This document shows, in pieces, positions 28,100 through 64,000 of a DNA stretch of 64,000 bases (position 1 is its first letter; each line of letters opens with the position of its first letter). The notes under the pieces are model-generated. The model was not told the origin of the DNA. It ran no database searches and saw nothing but the letters and a program-made list of their open reading frames with translations. Both the position numbers and the translations under genes were made by a program. This DNA is from Fidelibacterota bacterium (GTDB lineage: Bacteria; Fidelibacterota; UBA2242), in NCBI GenBank assembly GCA_049975265.1, contig JBNGDF010000005.1, forward strand, positions 10,220 to 74,219, in the 5' to 3' direction.

Positions 28100-29031
28100 T
28101 TAAGTTAGATGAAGCAGCTCGTCAGCCCCCTGATCATCAATAACCAGAGAGTTGATGATTCCTGCTCTCGCCGCAGCGGCAACGACTTGAGCCCGATCCC
28201 GTCCGCCGGTTACGGCAACCACTTCCGGAATCCTTTTTAACTGTTCCAAGCTGATGCCGATAATCCGGTTTGTATAAGTGGTTTCACATTCATTGCCATC
28301 TTGGTCCAGAAAATGACCACAGATTTCACCCACCATGCCCCGGGATTTAAGGTTATTTAATTTGTGTTTTTCAGAAAATTCATTTGTGTAGAAGACCGAA
28401 TTTACCGGATTACCAATTCCTACGAAAGCCAGGTTGGCATGATCCATCTGGTTTAGGACATATTTAATCTGCTCGTGTTCTACAAAAATTTGGTAGCTGC
28501 GGTGGTCGGGAGTGATTGCGGGGGCTTGCAGACGATAATATTGTCCGCCCCAGCGTTTCGCCAGGCGCCGGGTAAGTTCGATAGCATCATTTTCCTGAAT
28601 CTGGGTAGAAATATCACCGATGGCTTGAATAAAGATATTGCTGTAAGTCGCTTGGGTCGGTTTCATCTCCTCCGTCACAGCATTCAGATAACGTCCCGCG
28701 GCGACACAGACAACTGAACCGGATTTGATTAGTTTGCTGAGAACAGGAGCCGCAAAATGCCCCATCGTGTAGCGATACTGTTCGCTGGTCTGACCGGGGA
28801 TTGTTTTGATGACGACGCAGTGATGAAAATGGAATTCTTCCATCAATTTCTTTTCAAGCACCTGATCACGGGGCGAAAAAGGCTTAACCTGGATTTGGAC
28901 TATTCCCTTTTTACGGGCTTCCTGGAGCAGACGGGACACATTAGCCTGGGATAGTCCGGCTAGTTTAGCTACTTTAGCCTGCCCCAGACCTTCGATGTAG
29001 TAAAGCGAGGCAACAAGCAGTAAAATTTCAT
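28100..29031 (-). CDS. SorC/CggR-family sugar-phosphate-binding transcriptional regulator (locus 1)
   Basis: C-terminal sugar-binding domain in track ORF 28100..28939 (GTG). The HTH LLLVASLYYIEGLGQAKVAKLAGLSQANVSRLL continues in-frame upstream to a stop at 29078-29080, with no in-frame ATG. An ATG at 29029-29031 lies 1 nt out of frame, just before a TTTT/AAA run; an in-frame ATT (29048-29050) lies 6 nt downstream of an AGGGAG SD. Confidence 0.65.
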
Positions 29032-29285
29032 CTTTTGCTTTTGGTTTAATGTCTGGCTCCCTGCGAAGTTTTAAAAATCATCCTGACCGTAAATTGATTG
29101 AACATTTCAAATTCTCCCAGATAATAAAGAAAAAACATCAATTATTCAATCATATTTATTCATTAAAAAAAATTTATATAAAATGAACTCTGTTCTGACA
29201 ATGAGTGTTTTTACCAATATTGCTATACTTAATGATTTTCCCCTTATAAAATTGAAGTTGTCTGGTTGTTTTTAACAAAAAAAGT

Positions 29286-29313
29286 GTTGACATTCCCTGA
29301 AAAATGCTTAAAA
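29286..29313 (+). promoter_or_regulatory. Sigma-70-like promoter for the locus-1 TonB receptor operon
   Basis: TTGACA (29286-29291), 16-nt spacer, TAAAAT (29308-29313), about 155 bp upstream of the receptor ATG. Confidence 0.35.
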
Positions 29314-29331
29314 TTAACTTGGCATTTTTAT
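29296..29331. promoter_or_regulatory. Imperfect inverted repeat TGAAAAATGC...GCATTTTTA overlapping the -10 element; candidate SorC operator
   Basis: TGAAAAATGC (29296-29305) and GCATTTTTA (29324-29332) are reverse complements at 9/10 positions. A second GAAAAATGCT copy lies at about 29409. The locus-2 intergenic region has a related perfect palindrome TGAAAAATC-N5-GATTTTTCA. Confidence 0.3.
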
Positions 29332-29467
29332 TAATGGATATTTATTCAATTTAATTATAAAGCATGGTTTTTTTTTAAACATAGGTCGAAACAGGCGGTT
29401 AAGAAACAGAAAAATGCTCAGCCGCGCCCAGACTGGGATTAGGGCAAGCCTGTGTGGAGTGATAGTT

Positions 29468-32185
29468 ATGAATAAATTTGGTGTGGTTGTAATAGTTGGA
29501 CTGGTCTTATTGATTTGTATTAGTGCTTTGGCTGCACGACCGGAAAAATCATGGGGAAGATTGTTGATAAAAACACCGGTGATCCGATTGTCGGCGCTAA
29601 TATCTATATTGAAGGTACCAGTATGGGGACGGCATCGGATATCAATGGCGATTACTTTATTATCAACATTCCACCCGGAACCTACACACTGATCTGTTCT
29701 TATGTTGGATATGAACGCATCTCCGTAGTAAATATTGAGGTCAACGTTGACCGGACTACAATTCAAAATTTTTCTATCGCTCCCCAAGCAATTGAGGGTG
29801 AGGAAGTAACGGTTATTGGGACCCGCAAGATTATTGAAATGGACCGCACAAATACAGCGGCTTATGTAACATCAGAAGAAATTCAGACCATGCCGGTGCA
29901 GGAGCTGGGCGACCTTATTCAGCTGCAAACGGGTGTGGTGAAGGATGCCGGTGGTACTTTTCATATTCGTGGTGGTCGCGGTGGTGAAATCGCCTATCTG
30001 ATTGACGGAGTTCCGGTGACGGATCAATATAACGGCGGAAGTTCCATTGCGATGGAAAACAGCTGGGTTCAGGAGCTGCAGGTCATCAGCGGTACGTTTA
30101 ACGCCGAGTTACGGTCAGGCTCAATCGGGTGTCGTCAATATGATTACCAAGGAGGGTGCGAAAAAATTTGGCGGAAATGCCTCGCTCTCAATTGGCGATT
30201 ATCTTTCAAGCCATTCAGATATTTTTATGAATATCGGGGAGATAAATATAAATGAGAAGGACCTCAATCTGAACTTCAGAGGACCGATCTCCCTTATTCG
30301 GAATTTGTCTTTTTACACATCCCTGCGCTATTATCAGACCGATGGCTGGTTATACGGACAGCGTCGGGTGCTTATCGATGATACCGTGCCGATCCAGCAT
30401 TATGTCTATCAGGCTCAACGAAATCCCACTCAGGAGGAGTCACTTTATGGGTATAACATTCCGGACTCGCTGATGAATGGAGACGGCGCCTATATTCCCA
30501 TGAATGGCAGAGAAAAAATTTCCGGTTACGGGAAGCTTTCGTACATGCTTACGCCGAAAATTAAGATCAACTATTCGCTATTTTACAATAAGACGGAATC
30601 CAGGTCCTACAGTGATTCCCGGCGCTACTCTCCTGACGGTGTACGTCCGTCTCATGACCGCAATTATAATCACATTCTCAGTCTGAATCACATCCTCTCA
30701 AATAAGACCTTTTATAATCTCAACCTATCCCATTATGCCAAAAACACCTGGTCTTACCTTTTTGAAAATCCTCTGGATCCGCGTTACCAAGGCATTGCCT
30801 TTAGTGACCAGGGATTCATCTTTGGCGGCACTCAGAACGACCGGTATGATATTTTACGCTCGGCGACATCAGTTAAATTTGATCTGACCAGTCAGATCAA
30901 CAAGTTCAATCAGGTTAAAATGGGGCTCGAGTATAAGCAACACAAACTTGATTACAACTCTTCCAAAACGGTAGCATACGGTGTCAACTACCAGCCGCCC
31001 GATTCTCTGGCGGTGCCTGCGAGAAATACGGCAAATAATAATCATTATCTGGTAAAGCCCTTAGAAGCATCAATATATATTCAGGACAAAATTGAATTCA
31101 GAGAGGTGATCATCAATGTCGGTTTACGTTACGATTACTGGGACCCGGTAGCTCAGATCCCCGTGGATTTACGCGCCAGAACAAATATCTATGATGGTAT
31201 TCGACTGGATTCGGAACTCAGGAAAGCCAAAAAACAGATGCAACTGAGTCCCCGATTGTGTTTAGCATATCCTATTTCCGACCGGGGAGTATTTCACGTT
31301 TCCTACGGTCACTTTTTCCAGCTGCCGCGTTTCAATGCAATTTACAATAATTACGAATATGAGATTGAACTGGGCGGGCTGCGTACAACAATGGGCAACG
31401 TGAATTTGAAACCGGAACAGACAGTAGCTTACGAGTTGGGACTTCAACAGCAACTTGCGGCGGACTACAGTATTGACATTACCGTTTATTATAAGGACAT
31501 CCGTAATTTACTGAGTCAGGAAATCATCAGTACCTATGATGACAAGGTCTATGCCCGCTATATTAATCGTGATTACGGCAATGTAAAGGGTATCATCTTT
31601 TCGGTGAACAAAGCCTATTCGAATTATTTTTCCGGTGGGATTGATTACACCTATCAGGTGGCGATGGGGAATGCGTCTGATCCGAATGCTGTCTTTACAA
31701 GATATCAGACCGATCCACCGGCGGAGGACGAAAAGCAGGTGGTCCCTCTGGACTGGGATCAGCGGCATACCTTGAATGCGTCGGCGATTGTTGGGAATCC
31801 GTCCAACTGGACCTTTGCGGTAATCGGGCGGTTTGCCACAGGAATGCCTTACACGCCGACCAACCCCGGTAGTCAGTTGACGACCCAGTTTGAAAACAGT
31901 GCCCGCAGACCGGCGACGTATAACATTGACCTGAATATCTATAAATCGGTGAAATTGCAGCGCTATAAGCTGAATCTCTTTTGCAAGATATTCAATTTGA
32001 CCGACCGTTTAAATGAGATCAGAATCTATTCCAGTACCGGCAATGCCCGTCATCCCTACAGGACCATTCCCAATATGGAGGTGCTGCAAAACAATCCGAA
32101 TTTCACGGTGGATGAGGTGGATTTGAATCCTACCTACTATTCCAGTCCCCGACGGGTTTTATTCGGTATAAGTGTCGATTTCTAA
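29468..32185 (+). CDS. TonB-dependent outer-membrane receptor (CarboxypepD_reg + plug + barrel), locus 1; reading frame broken by two compensating 1-nt frameshifts
   Basis: Signal peptide MNKFGVVVIVGLVLLICISALAA in frame A. GKIVDKNTGDPIVGANIYIEG...plug domain in frame B from about 29527. Returns to frame A at about 30108 (NAE|YGQAQSGVVNMITKEGAKKF). Paralog at 56024..58735 is colinear and intact. C-terminal ...VLFGISVDF. Alignment with the paralog indicates one extra nt near 30106-30110. Confidence 0.7.
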
Positions 32186-32200
32186 AAGAGGAAAATATTC

Positions 32201-35200
32201 ATGTGCAAATCAATAATAATACGATGCCTTGTTCCTGTTACCCTTCTGTTTCTGACCAAGCAGGGGTTGTTCGCCGGAGCTGATGAGCGTACCACCGGGG
32301 TTCATGATGGTAACCTTGTAATTACCCGCTATTCGAATTATGGCAACCTGGGGCACCGCGATTCCAGTCCGCGGATGGAATGGCCGAAGGGGACCGGTTT
32401 TGTCTACGGGTTTGAATTTATTATGATGGCGGGTGCTGAAGTGCTGGACGTTAACGGCGATACAGTCCATATCGTATCGGAATCCTATTCACATCCAACC
32501 AGCGGGGATATTTCGGCAGACGGAACGCACTGGTACAGCTGGCAACCGTTGCCGGGTTATTACAATATGGGACCCGAAAACAAGCTGTTATATCCGGCGA
32601 TGAGTCATAAACCAGAGACCTGGCCGGCAAGCTGGCCTCACGACTACCCCGGCGAACCCGGAACCCGTGACGGTTTGTGGAACGGTGAGTTTGGTGCTTA
32701 TACGCGCGCTGATCAGGAAAGTTACTATGTCATGGACGATCGTGACAATGACGAGTACGAATATTATCCCTTTATCGGAAGTTCTGTTGATTCATCGGGC
32801 TATCCCTACGGGAGGCGTGGTCTTGGATTTGAGGTGAAAATGCGCGGCTATCAGTGGGCGGCAGTAGAGGCGGAAGACATTCTGATTGTGTGTTACGATA
32901 TTGCCAATGTCAGTCATAAAAACCTCGAGACAGTTGTATTCGGTATGTACGTGGATGCCATGGTGGGTGGTACCAATGACAATCCCGATCATGCAACATT
33001 TGACGATTTGGATGATATTACCTATTGCTGGGATCATGATGGTGTGGACAATCGGGGTCGCCCGGGGCTCGGTTTTTTCGGATTTGCTTTTTTGGAAAGT
33101 CCCGGTGATCCGCTAAATGGAGTAGATGATGATCAGGATGGGTTAATCGATGAACGTCAGGATAATCCTCGCGGCAACTATATTTTTGGTTCAATCGGCA
33201 ATTTTGGAGAGCCCTGTTGGCACTGGGAAGGCGATGAAGATGGGGATTGGCGCCCTTATTTGGATGAGAACGGAAATGGACAGTGGGACCACGGTGAATT
33301 CATCGGTGATGATGTCGGTTCGGATGGGATCGGACCATATGACCAGGACTATCCGGGACCAGATCCTGATGGAACCGAAGCCAACGGAATGCCCGATGAC
33401 GGCGAACCGAATTATAATAAGACCGACAACGATGAATCGGATCAGATCGGCTTGACCAGTTCAGTATTGTGTGAAGCCCAGAGTATGGCACCCGACGAGC
33501 GCACCTGGAACCATATGAAGCCTGGCCTGTTTGCCTGGGTTCAACCTTCTAATCTCGCGTTTGTTTACGGCTCGGGCTATTTTAAGGTTATGCAAGCAGA
33601 AACCCGCAAATTTGCCATTGCCTGTCTGTTTGGAATTGATGAAGATGATATATACCGTAATAAAAGAACTATGCAGCGGATTTACGATGCCGATTATAGC
33701 TTTACTAAACCGCCGCTGAAGCCGCGTTTGACGGCTATAGCCGGTGATGGTAAAGTGATTCTCAGTTGGGATAAACGCGCTGAATTGTCCATTGATCCAA
33801 TCTATAAAGAGGATTTTGAAGGATACTTAGTCTATCGCTCTACAGATCCCTCATTTAATGATATTAAGACGGTCACCGATGCCTACGGTGCGCCGATTTA
33901 CTGGAAACCGATTGCCCAGTACGATCTGGTTGACGGTCTGAAGGGTCCGCATCCAATCGCAATTGAAGGGACCGGTGCGCAATTTTACATGGGTAAGGAC
34001 ACCGGTCTGAAATACTACTACGTCGATGAAGATGTCCAAAACGGGCGTACCTACTACTATGCAGTCTGTTCGTATGACAAGGGATATGACACGGACTTTT
34101 ATGAAAAGGGGTTCTCCCGCTATGATCTCCTGGCTCCGGTAGCGCCTTCGGAGTGTTCAAAAATTATTCAGACCGACCTCGTGGGCAATGTCACCAGTGT
34201 TGACCGTAACTGTGCCGTCGTCGTGCCCAATGCCCCCAGCGCCGGGTATGTGCCCGGTCAGGTGGAGGAAATTGAGCATATCGGCATTGCTACCGGCGAG
34301 TATGCCGTCAATGTTATCGTGCCCGATAGCGTTAAAGATGGTCATACTTATGAAATCACTTTTCTGGATGATTCGACGGACTGGCGCAATACAAAGAGTG
34401 TTAAAGTTGAAAATGTAACGGCGGGAAAGATTTTATACCAGAATGATTATAATGAATTCGAGATCAGTAACGAACTTTTTGAGGGGCTCCAGTTCGAATT
34501 TGACAACGATTCAACCTATATCAAAGAGTATGGCTGGCGGGTGGGTAATTGCAATCTGCCCGTAGAAGTGGACACGGCGTGGGGTGTCAAAATTATCCGG
34601 GTTCCGGAAGATCTGGAAATAAGGGTACTTGGTCCCAATGCCGACACCACCTACAATCCCCTTGCATGGGAGCGGTATCCGGTCAATTTTCAGGTGTGGA
34701 GTACGACCCGCAATGAACAGATGGATTTCATGTTCAGTGAACCGATTAATAAAGACAGTATGCTGAACGCCGGTGATAAGGTCTATCCGGTGATTAATGC
34801 CAAAGGATTTAATTACAACGATATATGGGAAATTTACTTTCGCCACGACACCACCCAAAAGGATGTGATTTTACCGCAGCCGGGTGACATTTTTGAAATT
34901 AAGGTCTATAAACCCTTTAACTCCGATGATACGCTCCGTTTTACAACAGCAGGTTCCTTCGTCAGCAAAACAGAAGCGAAGAGCAGTCTGGACGATGTAT
35001 ATGTCGTTCCCGATCCCTATGTGGTGACAGCCAGCTGGGAAAAACCACTGTTTTATGCCAGCGGTCGGGGTGAACGCCGGGTCGATTTTGTCAATCTGCC
35101 GCAGAAGTGTACGATTCGGATTTTTACCATGAGTGGAAAGCGGGTGCGGACCCTGCACCACTCCGCTGATTTAACGGATGATGGAACGGAATCCTGGGAT

Positions 35201-35305
35201 TTACTGACCGAAGACGGTCTGACGGTAGCCTTTGGAGTGTATATTTTTCATGTGGAGGCACCGGGGATTGGCTCCAAAATTGGAAAATTTGCCATTATCA
35301 AATAA
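32201..35305 (+). CDS. Large secreted Ca-binding-repeat protein with FN3-like domains and T9SS C-terminal sorting domain (locus-1 cargo A)
   Basis: Signal peptide. Many DxDxDG-type acidic repeats (DDDQDGLIDE, DENGNGQWD, DPDGTEANGMPDDGEP). FN3-like block (...VILSWDKRAELS...YLVYRS...). C-terminus ...CTIRIFTMSGKRVRTLHHSA...GVYIFHVEAPGIGSKIGKFAIIK resembles a T9SS C-terminal sorting domain. 15 bp downstream of the receptor gene. Confidence 0.75.
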   Translation: MCKSIIIRCLVPVTLLFLTKQGLFAGADERTTGVHDGNLVITRYSNYGNLGHRDSSPRMEWPKGTGFVYGFEFIMMAGAEVLDVNGDTVHIVSESYSHPTSGDISADGTHWYSWQPLPGYYNMGPENKLLYPAMSHKPETWPASWPHDYPGEPGTRDGLWNGEFGAYTRADQESYYVMDDRDNDEYEYYPFIGSSVDSSGYPYGRRGLGFEVKMRGYQWAAVEAEDILIVCYDIANVSHKNLETVVFGMYVDAMVGGTNDNPDHATFDDLDDITYCWDHDGVDNRGRPGLGFFGFAFLESPGDPLNGVDDDQDGLIDERQDNPRGNYIFGSIGNFGEPCWHWEGDEDGDWRPYLDENGNGQWDHGEFIGDDVGSDGIGPYDQDYPGPDPDGTEANGMPDDGEPNYNKTDNDESDQIGLTSSVLCEAQSMAPDERTWNHMKPGLFAWVQPSNLAFVYGSGYFKVMQAETRKFAIACLFGIDEDDIYRNKRTMQRIYDADYSFTKPPLKPRLTAIAGDGKVILSWDKRAELSIDPIYKEDFEGYLVYRSTDPSFNDIKTVTDAYGAPIYWKPIAQYDLVDGLKGPHPIAIEGTGAQFYMGKDTGLKYYYVDEDVQNGRTYYYAVCSYDKGYDTDFYEKGFSRYDLLAPVAPSECSKIIQTDLVGNVTSVDRNCAVVVPNAPSAGYVPGQVEEIEHIGIATGEYAVNVIVPDSVKDGHTYEITFLDDSTDWRNTKSVKVENVTAGKILYQNDYNEFEISNELFEGLQFEFDNDSTYIKEYGWRVGNCNLPVEVDTAWGVKIIRVPEDLEIRVLGPNADTTYNPLAWERYPVNFQVWSTTRNEQMDFMFSEPINKDSMLNAGDKVYPVINAKGFNYNDIWEIYFRHDTTQKDVILPQPGDIFEIKVYKPFNSDDTLRFTTAGSFVSKTEAKSSLDDVYVVPDPYVVTASWEKPLFYASGRGERRVDFVNLPQKCTIRIFTMSGKRVRTLHHSADLTDDGTESWDLLTEDGLTVAFGVYIFHVEAPGIGSKIGKFAIIK

Positions 35306-35333
35306 GCGATGTTCTCTTTAGTTGGAGTAAGAT

Positions 35334-39112: not shown

Positions 39113-39262
39113 GATAGCTTGGGAAAATTTTTTGTCCCCCTGAACAGTCCATTGATTTGACGGAAGTATGTTGTGATTTTTCTACTGAACATTGAAGAAA
39201 GGAGTTCTTCGAAAAATTGATGGGGTAAGCACTCTGTAAATCCGTTGAAAAAGGAGCCAATA

Positions 39263-44039: not shown

Positions 44040-44075
44040 GGTACGGTGGAAGTGAGTCGTTTAAGAAAGATAACA

Positions 44076-49000: not shown

Positions 49001-49346
49001 AGACATGAATACGGCGACCTTTGTCGGTCCGGCGGTGGTTGGAATAAACGGTGAGGATGCTCTTCCTAAGGTCTTCGCCCTGCATAAGAACTACCCGAAC
49101 CCATTTAACCCGGTCACGACGATCAATTACGATCTTCCCAAAGATGCCAATGTTCGCATCGTGATCTATGATGTAATGGGACGGGAGGTTCGCACGCTGG
49201 TGAACCGGCATCAGAAAGCGGGCTACAGGACACTGCAGTGGAATGCACTGGATAACCGCGGACTTCCGGTCAGTTCAGGCTTCTATTTCTATGTGATGGA
49301 TGCCGGCAACTTCCATAAGACCGAGAAGATGCTGTTGCTGAAGTAG
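46044..49346 (+). CDS. Four-LTD (lamin-tail domain) repeat protein with Ig-like spacers and T9SS C-terminal sorting domain; single in-frame TGA at 46323
   Basis: LTD blocks VINEFTYNSEYYDNEWIELYN..., IISEVMYNQTEGYEFIELMNAGDVDVDISGWWITDDNPT, IINEFTYNSEYYDNEFIELYNN..., VINEIMYHSADGNTEFVELKNLDDVAVDISGWWLRRDNPT, i.e. a tandem duplication of a two-LTD module. C-terminal YPNPFNPVTTINYDLPKDANVRIVIYDVMGREVRTL...GFYFYVMDAGNFHKTEKMLLLK. The TGA at 46323-46325 aligns with a Trp (TGG) in the internal repeat. Confidence 0.7.
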
Positions 49347-50459: not shown

Positions 50460-50475
50460 AAGGAAGCGACCGGGC

Positions 50476-51849: not shown

Positions 51850-51869
51850 AACATTAGCGGAAAAGGAAC

Positions 51870-52721: not shown

Positions 52722-52754
52722 TACTGTAGTGATTTAGATTACAGGAGACATCAG

Positions 52755-54143: not shown

Positions 54144-54616
54144 TGGGAAAGCGGTTAAAAATTGCGATTGACTGTGACGATGCGGCAACGGACCTGAAAA
54201 AAGTTATTTATGAGCATTTGAAGACATCTGGTGTTGATATTACCGATTTGAATTATGGAGCGGGGCGTGACGCCATGTATCCGGAGATCGGCTATCATCT
54301 GGCTCTGAAAATCCAGACCGGCGAATATGATCGGGGAATTTTAATTTGTGGTACCGGTTTGGGAATGGCGATTATCGCCAATAAGGTCGAAGGTGTGTAT
54401 GCCGGTGTTTGTCACGATGTTTATTCGGCTGAACGTCTGAGAAAGAGCAACAAGGCCCAAATATTGACCATGGGAGCGCGGGTCATCGGCAGCGAGTTGG
54501 CAAAAATGATTGTGGATGCATGGTTGCACTCCGAATTTAGCGGCGGTCACTCACAACCCAAAGTAGACCAGATCAAAGCTCTGGAAAGACGCTCTTTTCT
54601 TTCGAAAGCGTTATAA
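54143..54616 (+). CDS. RpiB/LacA/LacB-family sugar-phosphate isomerase
   Basis: MGKRLKIAIDCDDAA...GILICGTGLGMAIIANKVEGVYAGVCHD matches the RpiB fold motifs. Start codon overlaps the transporter stop. Confidence 0.8.
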   Translation: MGKRLKIAIDCDDAATDLKKVIYEHLKTSGVDITDLNYGAGRDAMYPEIGYHLALKIQTGEYDRGILICGTGLGMAIIANKVEGVYAGVCHDVYSAERLRKSNKAQILTMGARVIGSELAKMIVDAWLHSEFSGGHSQPKVDQIKALERRSFLSKAL

Positions 54617-54698: not shown

Positions 54699-55636
54699 TC
54701 AAGATATCTTTAATAATTCTCTTGCACCGATATCATCGATGACTAAAGAGTTGATCAGATTACCGTGAATGGCGGCGGCAAGAGCCTCCGCCCGATTTGC
54801 GCCGCTGGTAACGGCGATGACCTGAGGGATCCTTTTTAACTGTTCCATGCTGATTCCGATGACCCGATTGCGATATTCGGTATCACACTCTTCGCCATCC
54901 CGGTTAAAAAAGTGACCACAGATTTCGCCCACAACCCCCTTATTGATCAGGTAGTTTATATCGTTGGTTTTCAGAAAGTCGCGGTCGTAAAACACCGAAT
55001 TGCCGTGAACGCCAATACCGACAAAGGCAAGATCGGCGCTGTCCATACGGGATAATACGAATTTGATCTGATCGTGTGAGACAAAGGCTTCGTAGGTCTG
55101 ACTATTGGTGGTGATGGCCGGGGCTTGCAGGCGTAGAAATTGCCCGCTCCAGCGCTTGGCGAGTTTCCGAGTGATTTCAATGGCATCGTCTTCTTTGATA
55201 TGGGTGCTGATATCGCCCATCGCTTGAATGAAAGTTACGCCGGAACTGTTGGCCGGGTGCATGTTTTCGCTTAGGCTGTAAATATGACGTCCGGCAGCGA
55301 CACAGACAATGTTATTCGGTTTAATCAGTTTGGATATAAGCGGTCCGGCGAAATGCCCCAACGCATGCCGGCGGTTTTCCTCGCTGGTGCTGGCAGCGCT
55401 TTTGATGACAATTGCGAAATCCAGGTGATATTTGATTTTGAGATTTTGTTCGAGTTCTTTATCCTGAGCGGAAAAGGGTTTTACGGTGATCTGAACGATC
55501 CCACGCCGGCGCGCTTCCTCCAGGAGTCGGGAAACGGTGGCTTGGGACACCCCGGCTAGTTCCGAAACCTTTGCCTGCCCCAATTTCTCTACATAGTAGA
55601 GAGTCGAAACTAAGAGTAAAAGGTCATCTGAGACAT
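54699..55636 (-). CDS. SorC/CggR-family transcriptional regulator (locus 2), paralog of 28100..29031
   Basis: HTH DDLLLLVSTLYYVEKLGQAKVSELAGVSQATVSRLLEEARRRG plus a C-terminal sugar-binding domain. The track ORF's N-terminal 45 aa (to 55778) look like translated AT-rich spacer. The candidate ATGs at 55636 and 55627 are 1 nt out of frame, in the same ATG-N3-TTTTAC context as locus 1. Confidence 0.6.
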
Positions 55637-55754
55637 TAATTTTAATAGTGCACCCGATTTCAAATTGATTATAACACCAATAATCAGTTATTACTGCCTT
55701 TAAAATAATATAGTTGGAATATTTATACAAATAAAAAGAGGAAATTAGCAAAAG

Positions 55755-55777
55755 TGAAAAATCAGGCAGATTTTTCA
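55755..55777. promoter_or_regulatory. Perfect 9-bp inverted repeat TGAAAAATC-aggca-GATTTTTCA between SorC-2 and TonB receptor 2; candidate operator
   Basis: Read directly from the sequence. Shares the TGAAAAAT core with the locus-1 intergenic inverted repeat. Confidence 0.35.
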
Positions 55778-56023
55778 ATCAAGGGTAGAATAATAGGTAG
55801 CTTTCAATGAATTGGTAAAAAAACTGTTGACTTTTAGGATAAAAGATTGCATACTACACATAGAATTAATATTTATGAATAATTATTCTTATGGTATTAA
55901 TAATTCCCCGCAAACTCGAGATAAGTAAAAATTCTTTTATTGTGTTCGCAAAGGTGACTTCCTGAAACCTACCCAGATATCTTGACATGAATAAAAAATA
56001 TTTTCAATCAGTTGGAGTGGTGA

Positions 56024-58735
56024 ATGAGTAAAAATATCGGATACGCTGCTTTGGTTTTCATTGCCCTGTTCCAGTTTGGCTTTTCCGGGACTACCGGGAA
56101 AATCAGCGGAAAAATCGTGGACGGTACGACGGGCGATCCGATTATTGGAGCCAATATCTATCTTCAAAACACAGACTACGGCGCCGTTTCCGACGCTGAA
56201 GGTAGCTACTTCATCATCAATATCCCACCGGGTACGTACGATATTGTCTGCTCCTTTATCGGTTATGAGAAAACGATCTATACCGGTGTGGTGGTTAACC
56301 TGGACCGGACGACCACAGTCAATTTTACTATCAAGCCGCAAACCATACAGGGCAAAGAGGTGGTGGTGGTTGGTCAACGTACCCTGGTCGAAATGGACCG
56401 GACCAACTCAGCGGCGTATGTTTCTTCCGAGAACATCGAGACGATGCCGGTCCAGGAAGTCGATGATCTCATTCAGCTGCAGACCGGTGTTGTCAGGGAT
56501 GCCTCCGGTGCATTTCATATTCGGGGCGGGCGTGCCGGTGAAATTGCCTATCTGATTGACGGTGTGGCGGTTACTGACCAGTATAACGGCGGCAGCTCGA
56601 TTGGTCTGGAAAACAGCTGGGTTCAGGAATTGCAGGTGATCAGCGGTACCTTTAACGCCGAATACGGGCAGGCGCAATCGGGCATTGTAAATATTGTGAC
56701 AAAAGAGGGAGCGAAAAAATTTAAGGGCAGAGTGTCGGTCTCAGCGGGTGATTACATATCAGCACACAATGATGTTTTCATGAACATAGACTACCTAAAT
56801 GTCGGCGAAAAGGACCTGAATTTTAACCTTCAGGGACCATTGCCGGTTTTACCACAGGGGTCTTTTTATACATCCACCCGTTATTATCAGACCGACGGCT
56901 GGTTGTACGGTCAGCGCCGCATCAGGATTGAAGATACGGTGCCGATCCAGGCATTTATGAACGAGGCGTATAAAACCGAAACTGAGGACCAGAGATTGTA
57001 CGGCATTAAAGTACCTGACTCGCTAATGACCGGTGACGGAGCCTACATCCCGTTAAACGGAAAAGAGAAATTCTCCATTTACGGTAAGCTAACGACCAAA
57101 CTAGGTTCAGCCAAGCTTAACTATTCGCTTTTTTACAACGATGATGAAAGTAAAAGCTACAGCGATGCCCGCCGGTATGCACCCGATGGAGTACGGACCA
57201 ATTACGGTACCAGTTTTAACCACCTATTCAGTCTGAATCATGTATTGAGCAACAGTACGTTTTATACGTTGAATTTTACAAATTATTCTAAAAATACCCA
57301 GGCTTACCTCTTTAAGGATCCCCTGGATCCACGGTATCAGGGATCTCCTTATTCAACGGACGGTTTTTATTTCGGCGGAACCCAGAACGGTCGTTACGAT
57401 ATAACCCGTTCGGCATTATCCCTTAAACTGGACCTGACCAGCCAAATCAATACGGCAAATCAGATTAAAGGTGGATTTGAATTTAAACAACATAATTTGG
57501 ACTATTTTATCCAGGAGACCGTAGCCGAAGGACCGGTGTATGAAAAAGCGCATCTAAAACTACCAATTCGTGAGACCACGATGTTTAACCAGTATGTTGT
57601 CAAGCCCCGGGAAGCAGCAGTCTACCTCCAGGATAAAATGGAGCTCATTGAGATCATTATGAATATCGGTCTGCGGTATGATTATTGGGATCCGAATGCG
57701 TTAGTTCCCGACAGTCTGCGAGCCCCGGCGGATTCCGGTACGATTTGGCTCGGATCACCGCTTTCCGATGCAAAAACCAGATCACAAATCAGCCCCCGCT
57801 TCGGATTGGCATTCCCAATCTCCAATGAAGGTGTTGTGCACACTTCTTACGGTCATTTTTTTCAGCTGCCGCGTTTCGAATATATTTATAATAATTATGA
57901 GTACGAAATCGAACTCGGTAAATTGAAAACCAAGATGGGTAACCCGAATTTGAAACCGGAAAAAACAGTCTGTTATGAAGTGGGCTTACAGCAACAGCTG
58001 ATGGGAATTTTCGCACTGGACTTAACCATCTATTATAAGGACATTACAAACCTTTTAAGTCAGGAAATTATTTCGACCATTGATGACAAAGCCTACGCGC
58101 GGTTCATCAATCGAGACTACGGCAATGTAAAGGGATTTACACTGTCCTTTAAAAAGGGGTATGGTTATAACGATTTTGTGTCGGCTTCGGTGGATTATAC
58201 CTATCAGGTCGCCCGGGGCAATGCTTCAGACCCGAATGCCGTCTTTCTGGATTTTCAATCGGACCCGCCGAAGGAGACCGAAAAGCAGGTATTACCGTTA
58301 GATTGGGATCAGACCCACACGTTTAATGCCTCGATAGCCGTCGGGAATCCCTCGGATTGGAACCTGGGAATAATCGGACGGTATGCAACTGGTCAGCCCT
58401 ATACCCCCGTGAGTCCGGGAAGTGCACTGTCAACCCAGTTTGAAAACAGCGACCGCAAGCCGGTAACCTATAATATTGATATGACTTTTTATAAGTATTT
58501 ATCGGTAATGAATTATAAAGTCAAACTGTTTTGCAAAGTATTCAACCTGACCGATCGGTTGAATGAGATCACCGTTTATGAAGGTACGGGACGCGCCGGT
58601 TACACCTATCGAACCATGGCAACTTACCATTTGTTGCAGAAGAACCCGAATTTTACAATTGAAGAGATTGATCTCCGTCCGGATTACTATTCTGAACCAC
58701 GGCGCGTACTGATCGGTTTAGCTGTTGATTTTTAG
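56024..58735 (+). CDS. TonB-dependent outer-membrane receptor (CarboxypepD_reg + plug + barrel), locus 2, intact
   Basis: Signal peptide. GKISGKIVDGTTGDPIIGANIYLQN...GTYDIVCSFIGYE (carboxypeptidase-regulatory-like), plug domain, 22-strand-size barrel. C-terminal ...VLIGLAVDF. Colinear with the locus-1 receptor. Confidence 0.85.
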   Translation: MSKNIGYAALVFIALFQFGFSGTTGKISGKIVDGTTGDPIIGANIYLQNTDYGAVSDAEGSYFIINIPPGTYDIVCSFIGYEKTIYTGVVVNLDRTTTVNFTIKPQTIQGKEVVVVGQRTLVEMDRTNSAAYVSSENIETMPVQEVDDLIQLQTGVVRDASGAFHIRGGRAGEIAYLIDGVAVTDQYNGGSSIGLENSWVQELQVISGTFNAEYGQAQSGIVNIVTKEGAKKFKGRVSVSAGDYISAHNDVFMNIDYLNVGEKDLNFNLQGPLPVLPQGSFYTSTRYYQTDGWLYGQRRIRIEDTVPIQAFMNEAYKTETEDQRLYGIKVPDSLMTGDGAYIPLNGKEKFSIYGKLTTKLGSAKLNYSLFYNDDESKSYSDARRYAPDGVRTNYGTSFNHLFSLNHVLSNSTFYTLNFTNYSKNTQAYLFKDPLDPRYQGSPYSTDGFYFGGTQNGRYDITRSALSLKLDLTSQINTANQIKGGFEFKQHNLDYFIQETVAEGPVYEKAHLKLPIRETTMFNQYVVKPREAAVYLQDKMELIEIIMNIGLRYDYWDPNALVPDSLRAPADSGTIWLGSPLSDAKTRSQISPRFGLAFPISNEGVVHTSYGHFFQLPRFEYIYNNYEYEIELGKLKTKMGNPNLKPEKTVCYEVGLQQQLMGIFALDLTIYYKDITNLLSQEIISTIDDKAYARFINRDYGNVKGFTLSFKKGYGYNDFVSASVDYTYQVARGNASDPNAVFLDFQSDPPKETEKQVLPLDWDQTHTFNASIAVGNPSDWNLGIIGRYATGQPYTPVSPGSALSTQFENSDRKPVTYNIDMTFYKYLSVMNYKVKLFCKVFNLTDRLNEITVYEGTGRAGYTYRTMATYHLLQKNPNFTIEEIDLRPDYYSEPRRVLIGLAVDF

Positions 58736-58790
58736 AGCAAATCGTCTTGAATTTTCCTTAAAATTAAATGCGAAGGTGTAATTGAACATA

Positions 58791-61700
58791 TGACGGGAAA
58801 GAAAAAATCAAACAAATATGGGCGGTGTCTCGCAATACTGCTGATATCACTACTCTAGACCTGGACCGGTATATTTGCCGGTAATGAACATCGCCGGTCG
58901 GGAATCCACAACGGAAATCTGGTCAACACCCGCTTTTCCAATTTTGGGAATTTGGGTGACCGGTATAAATCGCCGCAAATGGAGTGGCCGAAAGGGACCG
59001 GATATACTTACGGTTTTGAGTTTATCATGGCTGCCGGAGGCGAAGTGGTGGATTCTGCGGGTTTCACGGTTCAGATTGTTTCCGAGAGCTATACACATCC
59101 GACCTCGCATGACATTTCACCCGATGGTACGCATCTCTGGAACTGGCAGCCTCTGCCAGGCTATTTCGAAGAGGATATCACAATTAATAAAGATGAATTT
59201 CCGGCAATGAGTCATAAATCGGAAACCTGGCCTAAATCCTGGCCGCATGATTATCCCGGTAATCCCGGTACTCGTGCTGGGCGTTGGAATGGTGAATTTG
59301 GTGCCTATGTTCGGGCGGATCAAGAGAGCTATTATGTGATTGATGATCGGGATAATGACGAATACGGCTATTTTCCATTCATTGGCAGTGCAATTGATTC
59401 CGGTGGCTGGTATACAGGCGGGCGCCGGGGACTTGGTCTCAAAGTAAAAGTGCGTGGATATCAATGGGCGGCTGTAGCAGCTGAGGATATTCTGATTGTC
59501 CGCTACGACTTTGAAAACTACAGTCATAAGGATTTACCGAAAGTTGTTTTTGGTATGTATGCCGATGTGATGGTGGGCGGCTCCGGTGATTCCGGTGATG
59601 ATTTAGCCTATTTTGACCTGGTTGATGATATTACCTACTGTTGGGATGCCGATGGTTTAGATATTAAAGGTCGCACGGGGATCGGTTACTTCGGATACGC
59701 CTTTTTAGAGAGTCCCGGTGATCCGCTTAATGGTCTCGATGATGACCAGGATGGTCTGATTGATGAAGAACAGGATAATGATCGAGGCAGTTATATATAA
59801 GGTCCGGTTGGAAAATTTGCTGAGGGCAATGTGTGGCATTGGTCTGGTGACGAGGATGGTGATTGGCGCAGCTATGAAGACGCCAACGGCAACGGACAAT
59901 GGGATTATGGGGAGTTTATTGGTGACGATGTCGGCTCGGACGGAATTGGTCCCTACGACTACGATTATCCAGGTCCGGATACCGACGGAACAGAAGCCAA
60001 TGGAATGCCGGATCAGGGAGAACCGAATTTCGGTAAAACTGATAATAATGAATCCGATCAGATCGGCTTGACCAGTTTTGTACTTAACAACGCCACCAAC
60101 ATGAAGGATGACCTCAGGGCATGGCGGTTCTTCCAACTGGGCTTGATTTCGACTCCTCCGGTTACAAACCTGGCGTTTTTCTATGGTTCGGGATATTTTT
60201 CCTTACCTAAAGAATGGAACCAGAAAATTTGCCATTGCAAATCTGTTCGGAAATGACTTTGAGGATATTTTAAAGAATAAGCGCACGATGCAGAAAATTT
60301 ATGATGCCGATTATAACTTTACAAAGCCGCCGCTGAAACCCAATGTCCGCGCTGTAGCACGGGACAGGAAAGTCATTTTGACCTGGGATAAGATGGCGGA
60401 ACTTTCCATCGATCCGATTTACGGTTCTGACTTCGAGGGCTATCTGGTCTACCGATCCACCGATCCCTCTTTTAACGACGTCAAAACAATTACCGATGCT
60501 TACGGTAATGAGCTCTACTGGGAACCGATTGCCCAGTTTGACAAAGCCGACGGGCTGAGCGGCTTGCATCCGATTACGATTGAGGGTACGGGAGCTCATT
60601 TTCACATGGGAGATGACAGCGGCTTACAGTACCATTATATTGACAGCACAGTGGAAAACGGGCGGCGCTATTTTTACGCTGTCTGTTCCTATGATAAAGG
60701 GTATGACGAGGATTTTTACGAGCGGGGTTTGTCGTCGGTGGCATCGCTTGCACCGGTTTACCCCACCGAATGCAGTAAAATCATTCAGATTGATGCGTTG
60801 GGGGAAGTGGAGTATGTGGATATCAATTGCGCCGTAGTGACTCCCAATGCCGGCAGCGCCGGTTATATTGAAGGGGGCATGGTGGCTGACTACGAGCACG
60901 TCGGTCTGGCGACCGGCTATCTGGATGTGGTGTTTGCTATCCCCGATGACGTTCAGGATGGACATCGTTATGAAGTAACCTTTTCTGATACCACCGGCGG
61001 TCGCTTCACCAACGGTATCTGCATCCGGGATTTAACGGATAATGAGATTATCTATAAGAATGACTGTTACGATGAATTTGATATCAGAAGGGAAGTCCGA
61101 GAAGGTATGCGTTTTGATTTTTACAACGATTCTTCCTACGTGACCGAGCACGGCTGGCTGGTGGGGAATTGTAATCTGCCCTATCGTGTTGGTCTAACCA
61201 GCGATAACGCCAAGCGCCGCACGCTGCCGGAAGATATTGAGATTCGGATTCTGGGAGATAATGCCGACACTTCGTTCTACAATCCACTGGACACTGAATC
61301 CAACCGCCCGGTAAATTTTCAGGTCTGGAGCACCACCTACAACCGCAAGCTGGATTTTGCTTTTTATGAATATGTTCATAAGGACAACCGTCTTAATGGC
61401 GGCGATCAGATCAGTATTTGTCATGAAATTCAGAATTTCGGCACCGCTTCGAAGGTTGCCTGGATTTTCAAACTGGATACCGTCGAAAATGCGATTGACC
61501 CGGAATATGGTGATATATTTTACTTTAAGGTGACCAAGCCATTCAATGCCGATGACACCATCCGTTTTATAACGCACGGATCAAAGATAGACAAAAAGCA
61601 GGCGAAAGCGGACCTGGATGATATTTACGTAGTTCCCGATCCCTATGTGGTCAGTGCCCCCTGGGAAAAGCCGCTATTTTTTACCAGTGGCAGGGGCGAA

Positions 61701-61928
61701 CGGCGCATTGATTTTGTCAATTTGCCGTCGGAATGTATGATTCGTATCTATACGGTTTCAGGAAAACTGGTCAAGACTCTCAGGCATTCGGCGCAGATGT
61801 CCATGGGTGCCGAATCATGGGACTTGGTGTCGGAAGACGGGCTGACGGTGGCATACGGCATATATGTCTATCATGTGGAGGCTCCCGGAATCGGTTCGAA
61901 AGTGGGCAAATTTGCTTTAATAAAGTAA
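58791..61928 (+). pseudogene. Decayed paralog of the large Ca-binding T9SS cargo (locus 2): four disruptions
   Basis: 1. ATG at 58791 is 1 nt out of frame with the signal peptide (A6 run 58802-58807). 2. In-frame TAG 58856-58858 between signal peptide and mature region. 3. In-frame TAA 59798-59800 (GSYI*GPVGKF versus locus-1 GNYIFGSIGNF). 4. Frameshift near 60180-60256 (track ORFs 58952..59800, 59831..60256, 60183..61928). The T9SS sorting-domain tail ...IRIYTVSGKLVKTL...KVGKFALIK is retained. Confidence 0.7.
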
Positions 61929-61954
61929 CGGTGCATGATTGGATTGAGGATTCT

Positions 61955-63028
61955 ATGAATAAAAATCAACAAAAGTTGCTGCTGAAATTATTATTGATTG
62001 CTCTGGTTTTGATGGGTGGCTCGAGCCTGTGGGCGCAGCTGGAGGAGGAATACACCGAACTCATTTATACGGGGGAGGTCAACAAAAAGGGGTCATCCTC
62101 AGCCCAGTTTCTGGAAATCGGCATCGGCGCCAGGGCACTGTCCATGGGTAGTGCGTTTACGGCGGTGGCTAATGATGTGACCGCGCTATACTGGAATCCG
62201 GCGGGTATTACCCAGATTGACAATATCAGCGTCACCGGTACTCATACTGAGTGGTTTGCCGACATGTCGCTGGATCATGCTGCCGGGATTGTACCGGTGG
62301 GCAACGGACAGATGGTGGGATTTGCGCTGTCGGTTTTCAATGCCATTGATAAGCAGACGGTCCGCACCGTGACGTATCCGGAAGGAACCGGGGAATACTA
62401 CAGCGCCTCGGATTTGGCGCTGGCTTTGACATATGGTCTGAGAATCACCGATCGTTTCTCCTGTGGTTTGACGGGTAAATATGTACGGCAACAGATTTGG
62501 CACATGTCGTCAGCGGGGTATGCCGTGGATATCGGTTTACTCTATAAAACACAATTAAAAGGTCTGAATCTGGGCGCCAGTATTTCCAATTTCGGGACGG
62601 ATATGCGCCTGGCTGGTCGTGATGTGCGGCGGGCTCATGATGAAGACCCGATTCACTATTCAAACGATAAAATCAATGCCATGCTGGAAACCGATGCATT
62701 TCCAATGCCGCTGCTGTTTCGGTTCGGGCTGGCGTACTCTTTTTCACCTTTTAAATATAATGATTTGACGCTGGCGGTGGATCTGTTGCACCCCAGCAAT
62801 AACGTGGAATACCTGAATGTGGGCTGCGAATATGCTCTGGCAAAACTGTTTTTCCTGCGCATTGGATATGAGGCGCTGTTTGATGAAGAGGCGGAAAGCG
62901 GTTTGAGCCTCGGAGCCGGCATCAACTATAAGCTGTTTCAGCAGACGGCATTGCGATTTGATTATGCGATTGTTGACTGGGGACGTCTGGCGTATGCCCA
63001 GCATTTTACCGTGGGATTATCATTTTGA
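61955..63028 (+). CDS. PorV/PorQ/PorP-like outer-membrane beta-barrel (locus 2 paralog)
   Basis: Signal peptide MNKNQQKLLLKLLLIALVLMGGSSLWA. FLEIGIGARALSMGSAFTAVANDVTALYWNPAGI block homologous to 35334..36401. C-terminal ...HFTVGLSF. Confidence 0.5.
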   Translation: MNKNQQKLLLKLLLIALVLMGGSSLWAQLEEEYTELIYTGEVNKKGSSSAQFLEIGIGARALSMGSAFTAVANDVTALYWNPAGITQIDNISVTGTHTEWFADMSLDHAAGIVPVGNGQMVGFALSVFNAIDKQTVRTVTYPEGTGEYYSASDLALALTYGLRITDRFSCGLTGKYVRQQIWHMSSAGYAVDIGLLYKTQLKGLNLGASISNFGTDMRLAGRDVRRAHDEDPIHYSNDKINAMLETDAFPMPLLFRFGLAYSFSPFKYNDLTLAVDLLHPSNNVEYLNVGCEYALAKLFFLRIGYEALFDEEAESGLSLGAGINYKLFQQTALRFDYAIVDWGRLAYAQHFTVGLSF

Positions 63029-63062
63029 ATAATTTTTTTAAGAAAAAACCTTGGAGGTATTT

Positions 63063-64000
63063 ATGAAAAGAAGAAATGTTACCATCGCGAACCTCTGCGT
63101 GACGTTTCTGGTGCTGGCTTTTTTTTCCGGAACAGTCACGGCCCAATGGGGCAAGGCGTTGCATTATAAATGGTGGGAGCATGACCGGCTGCTGGTTCTC
63201 CAGTCGGTGGACTATTGGCCGGAGCATGTGTATCAGGGAACGGTAGAGTGTTTCTTCAAACTGGATTCGACGTTGCGTTCGGATAATCATGGCAATACCT
63301 ATACCTACATCATTTCGAAAAATCAGGGCGGTGCCGCCAAGGGCGATTTCGGGATTGCCTGGCAGACAGGGGCTGGCGATCTACACTCCTGGATTCAGGA
63401 TGTAAGTAAAACCGCCTCGGTGCATACATACGAAATTAAGGTCTGGCAACCCCGCTGGTACCATGTCGCAGTTACGTGGGATGTCAACGATTCAATGCGG
63501 ATTTGGGTAGACGGTGTCCAGATGGCGGATCGAACACCGTCAGGGCTGATTAATGATACCTATCCCCCGCTGGATGTGGAAAGTGGCAACATGCCGATTG
63601 TGATTGGAAACCAGACGACGGAACAGATGTCCACCACCTGGGACGGCTTTCGCGGTACGATTGACGAATTCCGGATCTCCAATGTGGTTCGCTATACCGA
63701 GGATTTTGAAGTTCCCACCGAGCCTTTCATAGCGGATGCCAATACCATGGCGCTCTGGCATTTTGATGAAGGTGAGGGTTACGTCGCCCACGATGCAGCC
63801 TTCGGTCTTTTCGACGGGAAATTGGGGAATGAGAGCAATAGTTATGTTGATGCACCCCAATGGGTTGATATTGTTTATTCAGAAAAAGTGATCATTAATG
63901 AGGTTTTGCTGGATGAGCGCAATAATGATGTCAACGGCGACGGTGTCAGTGACCTGCGGGATGAATTTGTCGAGCTGACCAACATTGCCGATAAGGCGGT
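63063..64000 (+). CDS. LamG-like + LTD protein (locus-2 cargo B), 3' end beyond the window edge
   Basis: Hand-translated MKRRNVTIANLCVTFLVLAFFSGTVTAQWGKALHY...RWYHVAVTWDVNDSMRIWVDGVQMAD (LamG-like). ...VIINEVLLDERNNDVNGDGVSDLRDEFVELTNIADKAV (LTD start) at the window edge. Paralogous to 36461..39058. Confidence 0.75.
   Translation, partial: MKRRNVTIANLCVTFLVLAFFSGTVTAQWGKALHYKWWEHDRLLVLQSVDYWPEHVYQGTVECFFKLDSTLRSDNHGNTYTYIISKNQGGAAKGDFGIAWQTGAGDLHSWIQDVSKTASVHTYEIKVWQPRWYHVAVTWDVNDSMRIWVDGVQMADRTPSGLINDTYPPLDVESGNMPIVIGNQTTEQMSTTWDGFRGTIDEFRISNVVRYTEDFEVPTEPFIADANTMALWHFDEGEGYVAHDAAFGLFDGKLGNESNSYVDAPQWVDIVYSEKVIINEVLLDERNNDVNGDGVSDLRDEFVELTNIADKA

Follow-up and report, generated by a model that had tools for sequence, protein, structure and literature searches.

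A recurrent trio of TonB-dependent receptor, ~1000-residue protein and PorV-like barrel in two paralogous loci of a Fidelibacterota bacterium, possibly serving the uptake of glycerol-phosphate-containing polymers

Polymer uptake in Bacteroidota is explained by SusCD. Abundant in oceans and sediments, several Bacteroidota-related lineages encode many TonB-dependent receptors (TBDRs) and, to our knowledge, largely lack SusD; they are Marinisomatota (SAR406), Calditrichota, Ignavibacteriota, KSB1, Fidelibacterota and Rhodothermales. Here, a stretch of 64,000 nucleotides from the Fidelibacterota contig JBNGDF010000005.1, hereafter the window, is analyzed. It carries two loci in which a TBDR is followed by a protein of about 1000 residues, here called big, and by an outer-membrane beta-barrel resembling PorV. 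This widespread and unannotated trio is the most interesting element of the window.

The described system closest in function is the phosphate utilization system (PUS) of Flavobacterium, which combines PusCD with periplasmic phosphodiesterases and for which head groups of lipids, as well as nucleic acids, have been proposed as the scavenged material (PMC8115612). A structural parallel is found in secretion by the type IX system (T9SS), where PorU and PorZ are the two substrates known to retain their C-terminal domains (CTDs) and are bound to PorV and PorQ, respectively; the cognate PorV-like barrels have been proposed to shield such CTDs from cleavage (PMC10202324). Salvage of teichoic acid is known from Bacillus subtilis, where it is performed by GlpQ and PhoD (PMC7086022). 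The two loci fit neither a SusCD polysaccharide utilization locus (PUL) nor a PUS, since they lack both a SusC-family receptor and SusD/PusD. No description of an architecture joining a TBDR, a PorV-like barrel and a large protein was found in the literature searched, with most subscription journals outside the search, which agrees with the original prediction that this is not a described type of PUL.

The trio was surveyed in 80 genome loci with a big homologue, from several phyla of the Fibrobacterota-Chlorobiota-Bacteroidota (FCB) group. A TBDR is encoded directly upstream of big in 60 of the 62 loci with enough flank. Of 72 loci, 64 have a PorV-like gene as the next gene downstream of big, and 68 have one anywhere in the locus. 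The receptor-big-barrel order thus recurs in FCB genomes, where the original prediction had suggested looking for the quartet of receptor, cargo, PorV-like barrel and LTD protein, and extends over Marinisomatota, Calditrichota, Ignavibacteriota, KSB1, Fidelibacterota and Rhodothermales. Its neighbors are far from constant. The trio of Caldithrix abyssi DSM 13497 (Calab_3298) is accompanied by FG-GAP T9SS cargo, a peptidase M20 and a racemase, that of one Fidelibacterota genome by a peptidase M14, and that of a KSB1-like clade by five FG-GAP/ASPIC cargo proteins and a BNR protein, with DHDPS and SSF genes upstream. Two or three trios in tandem, with no glycerol-phosphate genes nearby, are found in Marinimicrobia, Fidelibacterota and other metagenome-assembled genomes (MAGs) of the FCB group (loci L063, L066, L070 and L077, the last at 191-14216 and 17196-22585). 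The invariant core is the TBDR, the ~1000-residue protein and the PorV-like barrel, and not the cargo with lamin-tail domains (LTDs) around which the system had been thought to be built, as the trio also stands beside peptidases or FG-GAP/ASPIC cargo without any LTD. Because the accessory genes vary by lineage, the trio behaves as a generic uptake module whose neighbors set the substrate.

The reading that we prefer, with a rough probability of 0.55, is that each locus encodes a SusD-less outer-membrane machine for nutrient uptake, here for a polymer or conjugate containing glycerol phosphate. In such a machine, big would be exported by the T9SS with its CTD kept, be anchored to the outside of the cell through its cognate PorV-like barrel, in the way that PorV holds PorU and PorQ holds PorZ, and act beside the TBDR as the partner that captures the substrate, so that it would presumably fill the role of SusD. 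Two further T9SS cargo proteins, one with LamG and LTD domains and the other with LamG and an unassigned domain, would bind or process the polymer or conjugate, for which teichoic-acid-like polymers, phosphoglycerol-decorated glycans and phospholipid head groups are candidates. Fragments would then pass the outer membrane through the TBDR, and two lipoprotein glycerophosphodiester phosphodiesterases (GDPDs), together with a purple-acid-type phosphoesterase, would free glycerol phosphate in the periplasm. An organophosphate:Pi antiporter (OPA) would import it, and a DAO-BFD/Pyr_redox_2/DUF1667 complex and an enzyme resembling glycerol-1-phosphate (G1P) dehydrogenase (G1PDH) would oxidize it to dihydroxyacetone phosphate. 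Each locus would be controlled by a regulator of the SorC type, for which sugar phosphates are the typical signal.

The genes concerned are listed below by position in the window, the complex just named being the glycerol-3-phosphate (G3P) dehydrogenase-like group that opens the list.

24779-27898, minus strand: G3P-dehydrogenase-like group of three genes by Pfam, DUF1667 (24779-25165), Pyr_redox_2 (25134-26411) and DAO with a BFD [2Fe-2S] domain (26405-27898)
28100-29060, minus strand: SorC/CggR/DeoR-type regulator 1 (SorC1), called open reading frame (ORF) 28100-28939, PF04198 at 1e-58
29414-32185, plus strand: TBDR1 with CarboxypepD_reg, Plug and barrel, frameshifts near 29525 and 30108
32201-35305, plus strand: big1, 1034 residues
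35334-36401, plus strand: PorV/PorQ-family outer-membrane beta-barrel 1 (NF033709)
36461-39058, plus strand: T9SS cargo of 865 residues with LamG, LTD, InlB-B-like repeat, LTD and type A sorting domain (Pfam, TIGR04183)
39245-40039, plus strand: GDPD1, predicted lipoprotein with lipobox FGASC, PF03009 at 3.2e-44
40059-42056, plus strand: esterase of the SASA type (SGNH-like), secreted (signal peptide), with a sugar-binding insert resembling GH2_N (Pfam)
42075-44039, plus strand: T9SS cargo CTD654, 654 residues (Pfam/NCBIfam)
44046-45763, plus strand: secreted phosphoesterase with 3-keto-disaccharide-hydrolase-like, Pur_ac_phosph_N and Metallophos domains, frameshift near 45085
46044-49346, plus strand: protein with four LTDs, two Big_5 domains and a T9SS sorting domain, in-frame TGA at 46323
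49575-54616, plus strand: operon-like block formed by the next five genes
49575-50459, plus strand: GDPD2, lipoprotein
50476-51849, plus strand: G1PDH-like Fe-ADH_2 dehydrogenase
51870-52721, plus strand: HAD phosphatase
52755-54143, plus strand: OPA-family transporter of the major facilitator superfamily (MFS)
54143-54616, plus strand: RpiB
54699-55778, minus strand: SorC/CggR/DeoR-type regulator 2 (SorC2), helix-turn-helix (HTH) and Sugar-bind domains, intact (Pfam)
56024-58735, plus strand: TBDR2, 903 residues, intact (Pfam)
58790-61928, plus strand: big2, paralogue of big1, with TAG at 58856, TAA at 59798 and a frameshift near 60215
62027-63028, plus strand: PorV/PorQ-family barrel 2
63063-64000, plus strand: locus-2 cargo with LamG and the start of a first LTD, incomplete at the window end

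The ORF listing and tblastn or six-frame comparison identify the loci at 28.1-39.1 kb and 54.7-64 kb as collinear paralogues with a common gene order: SorC regulator, TBDR, big (~1034 residues), PorV/PorQ-family barrel and LamG+LTD T9SS cargo. Protein identity by tblastn is 57% over 316 residues for the regulators, in an alignment reaching 29050, 62-71% for the receptors, 61-69% for big1 and big2, 51% for the barrels and 43% for the visible part of the LamG/LTD proteins, the second of which runs into the window edge and shows only LamG and the beginning of its first LTD. The five-gene order claimed for both loci is thus real, at 43-71% protein identity, and Pfam and NCBIfam searches, which the original prediction had proposed, support nearly all of its domain calls, including the GDPDs, the purple-acid-type and SASA esterases, the four-LTD protein, HAD, RpiB, the DAO-BFD group and the porins. 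These porins, of Porin_O_P and OprB-like type by Pfam, lie at 10.5-12.8 kb, and directly downstream of the phosphate-selective one is a patatin-like phospholipase gene (13192-13965, plus strand; PF01734, 2.3e-35), a possible link to phospholipids. The DAO-BFD group is encoded directly downstream of SorC1 and on the same strand.

Both receptors carry CarboxypepD_reg, Plug and TonB_dep_Rec barrel domains, in line with the carboxypeptidase-regulatory-like N-domain originally assigned to them. TBDR2 reaches 74.3 bits on the SusC/RagA model TIGR04056, whose cut-off is 368.25, and the match is confined to the N-terminal positions 26-243. No SusD family was detected by Pfam in any ORF of either locus; the gene directly after the TBDR is big, which has neither a Pfam match nor a lipobox. 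The view that the receptor has no SusD partner and that the surface parts are T9SS cargo instead is upheld by this result and by the sorting domains of the LTD and LamG cargo, which score above the TIGR04183 cut-off of 23 (34.3 bits in the LamG-LTD protein, 36.1 in CTD654 and 31.5 in the four-LTD protein). Both regulators contain the Sugar-bind domain of the SorC/CggR type; the HTH of SorC1 continues in frame upstream of the called ORF to ~29060, without an ATG, GTG or TTG start. Upstream of both TBDRs (~29280-29300 and ~55810-55830) there is a shared sequence, AAAAAAA[G/C]TGTTGAC[A/T]TT, with a TTGACA-like -35 box, which may be a common promoter or operator of the two SorC-controlled operons.

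Big itself has remained outside existing annotation. Sequence and profile searches with big1 gave no usable match in Pfam, NCBIfam or PDB, and its homologues, which number thousands, are all called hypothetical and have no Pfam domains. Their sources are Marinimicrobia, Ignavibacteria, Calditrichota, KSB1, Fidelibacterota, Zixibacteria and Rhodothermales, and a profile search of 1.84 billion cluster representatives returned 2053 of them (50%-identity clusters) at E≤1e-30. An AlphaFold model built from 108 diverse homologues (pLDDT 87.9, pTM 0.82) replaced a poor earlier one from 27 close homologues (pLDDT 60.9). The structure prediction proposed earlier for the 1034-residue protein has thereby given a confident fold: a signal peptide, a galactose-mutarotase-like beta-supersandwich (~30-500), an FN3-like part (~505-660), further beta-sandwiches with FN3/Ig-like character, and an end resembling a T9SS CTD (934-1034). 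The FN3-like domain of the original prediction is accordingly recovered in the predicted structure, whereas its calcium-binding repeats correspond to D-rich DxDxDG-like loops (~300-415) inserted in the supersandwich domain, which were read from the sequence and match no hidden Markov model.

The sorting domain attributed to big emerges at the level of profiles and structure, and not with curated models. A profile of the last 110 residues of the family matches the terminal sorting domain of the four-LTD protein, with 26.6 bits over 919-985 of its 989 residues, and that of the LamG-LTD protein, with 13.9 bits over 803-857 of its 865 residues, and, weakly, the CTD of PorU (E 0.27). Among the best Foldseek matches of the model are PorZ (E 2.5e-6) and PorU (E 1e-5); the TM-scores are low, which multi-domain chains would lead one to expect. 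UniRef names one family member from C. abyssi 'T9SS type A sorting domain'. Big was rejected as a PorU or PorZ, having no C25 peptidase or propeller domains, no NCBIfam match and no conserved Cys outside the CTD. Some family members of ~1360 residues (P0212, P0223, P0232 and P0240) bear an additional two-component-regulator propeller domain (PF07494).

The barrel that follows big was correctly described as PorV-like. It passes the PorV/PorQ family model NF033709 with 209.7 bits against a cut-off of 90, and stays below the equivalog cut-offs of both PorV (NF033710, 73 vs 250 bits) and PorQ (NF033711, 94.9 vs 220); barrel 1 also matches the PorV of F. johnsoniae in the PDB (6h3i_F, E 1e-5). As for the cargo, the 865-residue protein has the architecture first proposed for it, with Laminin_G_3, two LTDs, Flg_new_2 and the TIGR04183 sorting domain. 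The LTDs are genuine rather than unrelated beta-sandwiches, since PF00932 scores above the gathering score in both LTD proteins: 98 bits over two stretches in this one, and 177.7 bits over three stretches in the four-LTD protein, whose fourth LTD lies at 46044-46322 (45.8 bits). Pfam found no catalytic domain, nuclease included, in either of them. CTD654 consists of a LamG-like N-domain, a conserved domain of ~300 residues and a type A sorting domain; Laminin_G_3 is present in 14 of 22 homologues and the sorting domain in all 22, and its family profile retrieves from the PDB only sorting domains and weak LamG matches, with nothing for the central domain. The homologue of an Ignavibacteriales MAG (L060, 15655-17646) contains an in-frame stop. 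Core T9SS genes (SprA/Sov, PorK/L/M/N) are not encoded within the 64-kb window. At its beginning, one gene (1245-2651, minus strand) joins an M56 peptidase of the BlaR1 type to a TonB C-terminal domain, and the small ORF beside it (781-1203) weakly resembles T9SS sorting domains.

The main evidence on the substrate is that glycerol-phosphate genes recur across orthologous loci, so that the substrate should yield glycerol phosphate. In the window, both GDPDs have a lipobox and cover positions 1-244 of the 244 of PF03009, with 152.3 and 77.1 bits, above the gathering score. The MFS transporter, judged from its sequence, is an OPA-family member that falls below the equivalog cut-offs of GlpT (TIGR00712, 357.7 vs 632.55 bits), UhpC (393 vs 564) and PgtP (358.9 vs 407.75). 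The Fe-ADH_2 enzyme reaches 171.5 bits on the equivalog NF002022, whose cut-off is 413, and its best solved relatives are G1PDHs (PDB 9h4x, E 1.5e-35; also 4rgq, 4rfl and 5fb3). The labels GlpT-like and G1PDH-like hold for family membership, but not at the level of the equivalogs.

Beyond the window, 23 loci with full flanks and a big at least 54% identical to big1 represent five phylum-level lineages (Marinisomatota, Calditrichota, Ignavibacteriota, KSB1 and Rhodothermales). All 23 encode a protein with LTD, LamG and sorting domains, all 23 a CTD654 homologue, and 20 of the 23 have G3P genes (GlpD, the DAO-BFD group, GlpT-like, glycerol kinase or GDPD) within 10 kb. The order of the Caldithrix and Ignavibacteria type is GlpT-like, TBDR, big, PorV-like, GlpD (DAO and DAO_C), GntR, LamG-LTD, cargo and GDPD, and that of Rhodothermales is TBDR, big, PorV-like, LTD-LamG, cargo, SurA-like and GlpD. 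A more distant clade (43-47% identity) has no LTD and carries SurA-like, GlpT-like MFS, DAO-BFD, Pyr_redox_2, and glycerol kinase or PhoD. Gene content of this kind supports a glycerol-phosphate or phosphodiester substrate, and not DNA specifically. The phosphodiester and glycerol-phosphate theme proposed for the island thus extends to other genomes (20 of 23 loci), and its narrower version, capture of extracellular DNA, gains no specific support. The SurA-like protein, of 460-520 residues and with faint similarity to SurA_N and Rotamase_2, recurs in trio operons (L084, 19595-20989; L045, 14370-15932; L083, 14429-15958), where Rhodothermales have it behind the cargo genes and the 46% clade has it directly behind the PorV-like gene. 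A role as a dedicated chaperone of the periplasm is possible. The window showed no such gene, perhaps because it lies beyond position 64000.

Sequence comparison indicates that the two loci are old paralogues and not a recent duplication. Big1 groups with L081 (94%), L001 (82%) and L002 (81%), and big2 with the intact P0015 (92%) and L010 (77%), while big1 and big2 are 61% identical, a distance similar to that of each from the Caldithrix orthologue. Both types occur together in at least three related genomes, including one 37-kb contig (P0001 and P0015) and one MAG (L002 and L010). Locus-1 types have GDPD1 and the DAO-BFD group as neighbors; the DAO-BFD/Pyr_redox_2/DUF1667 genes also precede the orthologue in L002, and GDPD1-type enzymes also accompany GlpD in Ignavibacteria-type loci. 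Locus-2 types have GDPD2, the G1PDH-like enzyme, HAD, MFS and RpiB, and this block also precedes the clusters of L010 and L033. Since these old paralogues have stayed next to each other in related genomes, the two loci probably differ in substrate.

A more ambitious version, which we regard as tentative and more probably wrong than right, takes the trio for an unrecognized, phylum-spanning uptake machine of the non-Bacteroidia FCB lineages, with a binding protein, exported by the T9SS and fastened to its own barrel through an uncleaved CTD, in the role of SusD. Locus 1, with GDPD1 and the G3P-dehydrogenase group, would then serve diesters of sn-G3P, and locus 2, with GDPD2 and the G1PDH-like enzyme, diesters of sn-G1P, for instance polymers of the lipoteichoic-acid type or the head groups of archaeal lipids. 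The poly(glycerol phosphate) of wall and lipoteichoic acids are enantiomers and GlpQ is stereospecific (PMC7086022), which makes this split of substrates an attractive speculation.

Several points weigh against the proposed uptake of glycerol-phosphate polymers. The physical association of big, barrel and TBDR is one that we infer by analogy with PorU-PorV and PorZ-PorQ. The CTD of big contains a low-confidence insertion at 941-956 in the AlphaFold model and matches neither TIGR04183 nor PF18962 at E≤0.01, FlgD_ig coming to E 0.028. The transporter and the G1PDH-like enzyme, being under the NCBIfam equivalog cut-offs, have no fixed substrates, and a pure glycerol-phosphate route does not account for RpiB and HAD. 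With TBDR1 and big2 disrupted, each of the loci reads as incomplete. Finally, the supersandwich fold, LamG, the SASA esterase and the 3-keto-disaccharide-hydrolase-like domain point to a glycan as much as to a phosphodiester.

This last point underlies the alternative that survives best, although it is improbable: an ordinary glycan PUL, in which big and the LamG proteins bind polysaccharide and the phosphodiesterases trim phosphoglycerol-like decorations or are chance neighbors. In structure comparison, the N-domain of big is a supersandwich of the carbohydrate-binding type found in GH15, GH94 and GH65 enzymes and in mutarotases, LamG domains occur in three cargo proteins, and the SASA carbohydrate esterase with its GH2_N insert stands near the 3-keto-disaccharide-hydrolase-like domain. 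However, that esterase is the only such enzyme: no glycoside hydrolase (GH) or polysaccharide lyase (PL) catalytic domain was found in either locus or in annotated orthologous loci. Nor is there a sugar kinase, isomerase or sugar permease except for RpiB and the OPA-family MFS, and the glycerol-phosphate genes recur across phyla. LamG, the supersandwich and SASA would be compatible with a substrate that is a phosphoglycerol-bearing glycan or a teichoic-acid-like polymer with glycosylation.

Slightly less probable still is the use of phospholipids or membrane debris, where the esterase would deacylate, the FadL-related barrel would pass fatty acids or lyso-lipids, the TBDR would take head-group diesters and GDPD would give G3P. 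The parts for it are at hand in the SGNH-type esterase, the two GDPDs, the G3P route and the patatin-like phospholipase at 13192-13965; the PorV-like proteins have weak FadL/Toluene_X matches, and the G1PDH-like enzyme could serve archaeal G1P lipids. Against this, the barrel is strong on the PorV/PorQ family model (209.7 bits) and weak on FadL, genes for beta-oxidation or fatty-acid activation are absent from the loci, and most orthologous loci lack the SASA esterase. The trio is also found in peptidase contexts, which fits a role as anchor better than one as lipid channel.

The idea that LTD cargo binds extracellular DNA, whose fragments enter through the TBDR, is unlikely. LTDs are reported from the extracellular nucleases ExeM and Xds (PMC6085458, PMC6746945), and another LTD belongs to a nuclease of 'DNA-degradation loci' (PMC8289736). 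The SorC regulators resemble DeoR of B. subtilis (NF053881, 2.5e-42, below cut-off), and RpiB and a HAD sugar-phosphatase are present. Yet in the window loci Pfam detected no domain of a nuclease, a nucleotidase, a nucleoside phosphorylase or a deoxyribose-phosphate aldolase, and genes for nucleases or nucleoside catabolism were not seen among the annotated neighbors in five related loci; the tblastn queries of the 23-locus survey were drawn solely from this window plus some related loci and included no nuclease. The conserved partners are GlpD or G3P-dehydrogenase, GlpT-like, GDPD and glycerol kinase.

Within 28-64 kb the reading frames of TBDR1, big2, the four-LTD protein and the phosphoesterase are broken at least seven times by frameshifts or in-frame stops, and all three stop codons are used. 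Recoding of stop codons was rejected, because each of TGA, TAG and TAA occurs among the lesions and also as the terminator of normal genes in the window. A confinement of lesions to the duplicated loci is weakened by the OprB-like porin outside them (10480-11798, plus strand), which has two in-frame stops ('EEEL*QIRQ' and 'AIGGN*PDDYF'). Since this unrelated upstream gene is also broken, the lesions appear to be window-wide, in keeping with assembly error or general gene decay. That the loci are decaying remnants without current function in this organism, as these lesions might suggest, is the least likely of the alternatives, given that an intact copy of each core gene is present across the two loci (TBDR2, big1, PorV1, PorV2 and LamG-LTD1), that relatives at 92-94% identity have intact genes, among them a 923-residue orthologue of TBDR1 and a 572-residue orthologue of the phosphoesterase in L081, and that the two stops of the porin fit assembly or consensus error across the whole window.

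If the uptake reading is true, the conserved trio, with more than 2000 clusters at 50% identity, no annotation and no solved relative, would fill the SusD gap in the sister phyla, and the import of nutrients would become a task in which the T9SS takes part directly. Its glycerol-phosphate subtype would represent a recycling route in the dark ocean for teichoic-acid-like polymers or lipid head groups, which are a sizeable pool of organic phosphorus and carbon. The idea is testable, as the cultured C. abyssi DSM 13497 carries a homologous trio at Calab_3298.

Compared with known systems, the window shares with the SusCD PULs of Bacteroidota the regulator-controlled cluster, a TBDR with a CarboxypepD_reg-like N-domain, proteins that bind substrate at the surface, hydrolases in the periplasm and a transporter in the inner membrane. 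It differs from them in having no SusD lipoprotein, a TBDR below the SusC/RagA model (74 vs 368 bits) and no catalytic domains of carbohydrate-active enzymes; the partner is instead a ~1000-residue non-lipoprotein with a T9SS-CTD-like end and a PorV-family barrel, and the trio is found mainly outside the class Bacteroidia. Like the PUS, it places a TonB-dependent transporter beside phosphodiesterases or phosphatases and an inner-membrane organophosphate transporter, here two GDPDs, a Metallophos enzyme and the OPA-family MFS. Unlike in the PUS, where PusD is a SusD-like lipoprotein, the accessory proteins are T9SS cargo and the big/PorV-like pair. No Pho-type regulator was seen, and the G3P-oxidizing enzymes make the clusters look like catabolism for carbon and energy no less than like the scavenging of phosphorus.

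With ExeM of Shewanella and Xds of Vibrio the loci have in common secreted LTD proteins tied to phosphodiester substrates, although here no catalytic domain, of a nuclease or otherwise, was found in these proteins, which are T9SS cargo in combination with LamG. As in the salvage by GlpQ and PhoD, a GDPD-family exo-phosphodiesterase, or PhoD in a related clade, would free glycerol phosphate, and the sn-G3P or sn-G1P stereochemistry matters; that system is Gram-positive, with secreted enzymes and no outer-membrane transport, and its link to the window is one of gene content alone. The pair of big and barrel resembles PorU-PorV, PorZ-PorQ and SprB-SprF-type pairs, in that a large secreted protein, here with an end like a sorting domain, is encoded beside a PorV-family barrel. 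Unlike PorU and PorZ, big has no C25 peptidase or beta-propeller and matches neither of their NCBIfam models, and its barrel, unlike PorV and PorQ, misses both equivalog cut-offs. The pair further differs from those of PorU and PorZ in being always coupled to a TBDR, in occurring in multiple copies, and in its varied catabolic neighbors.

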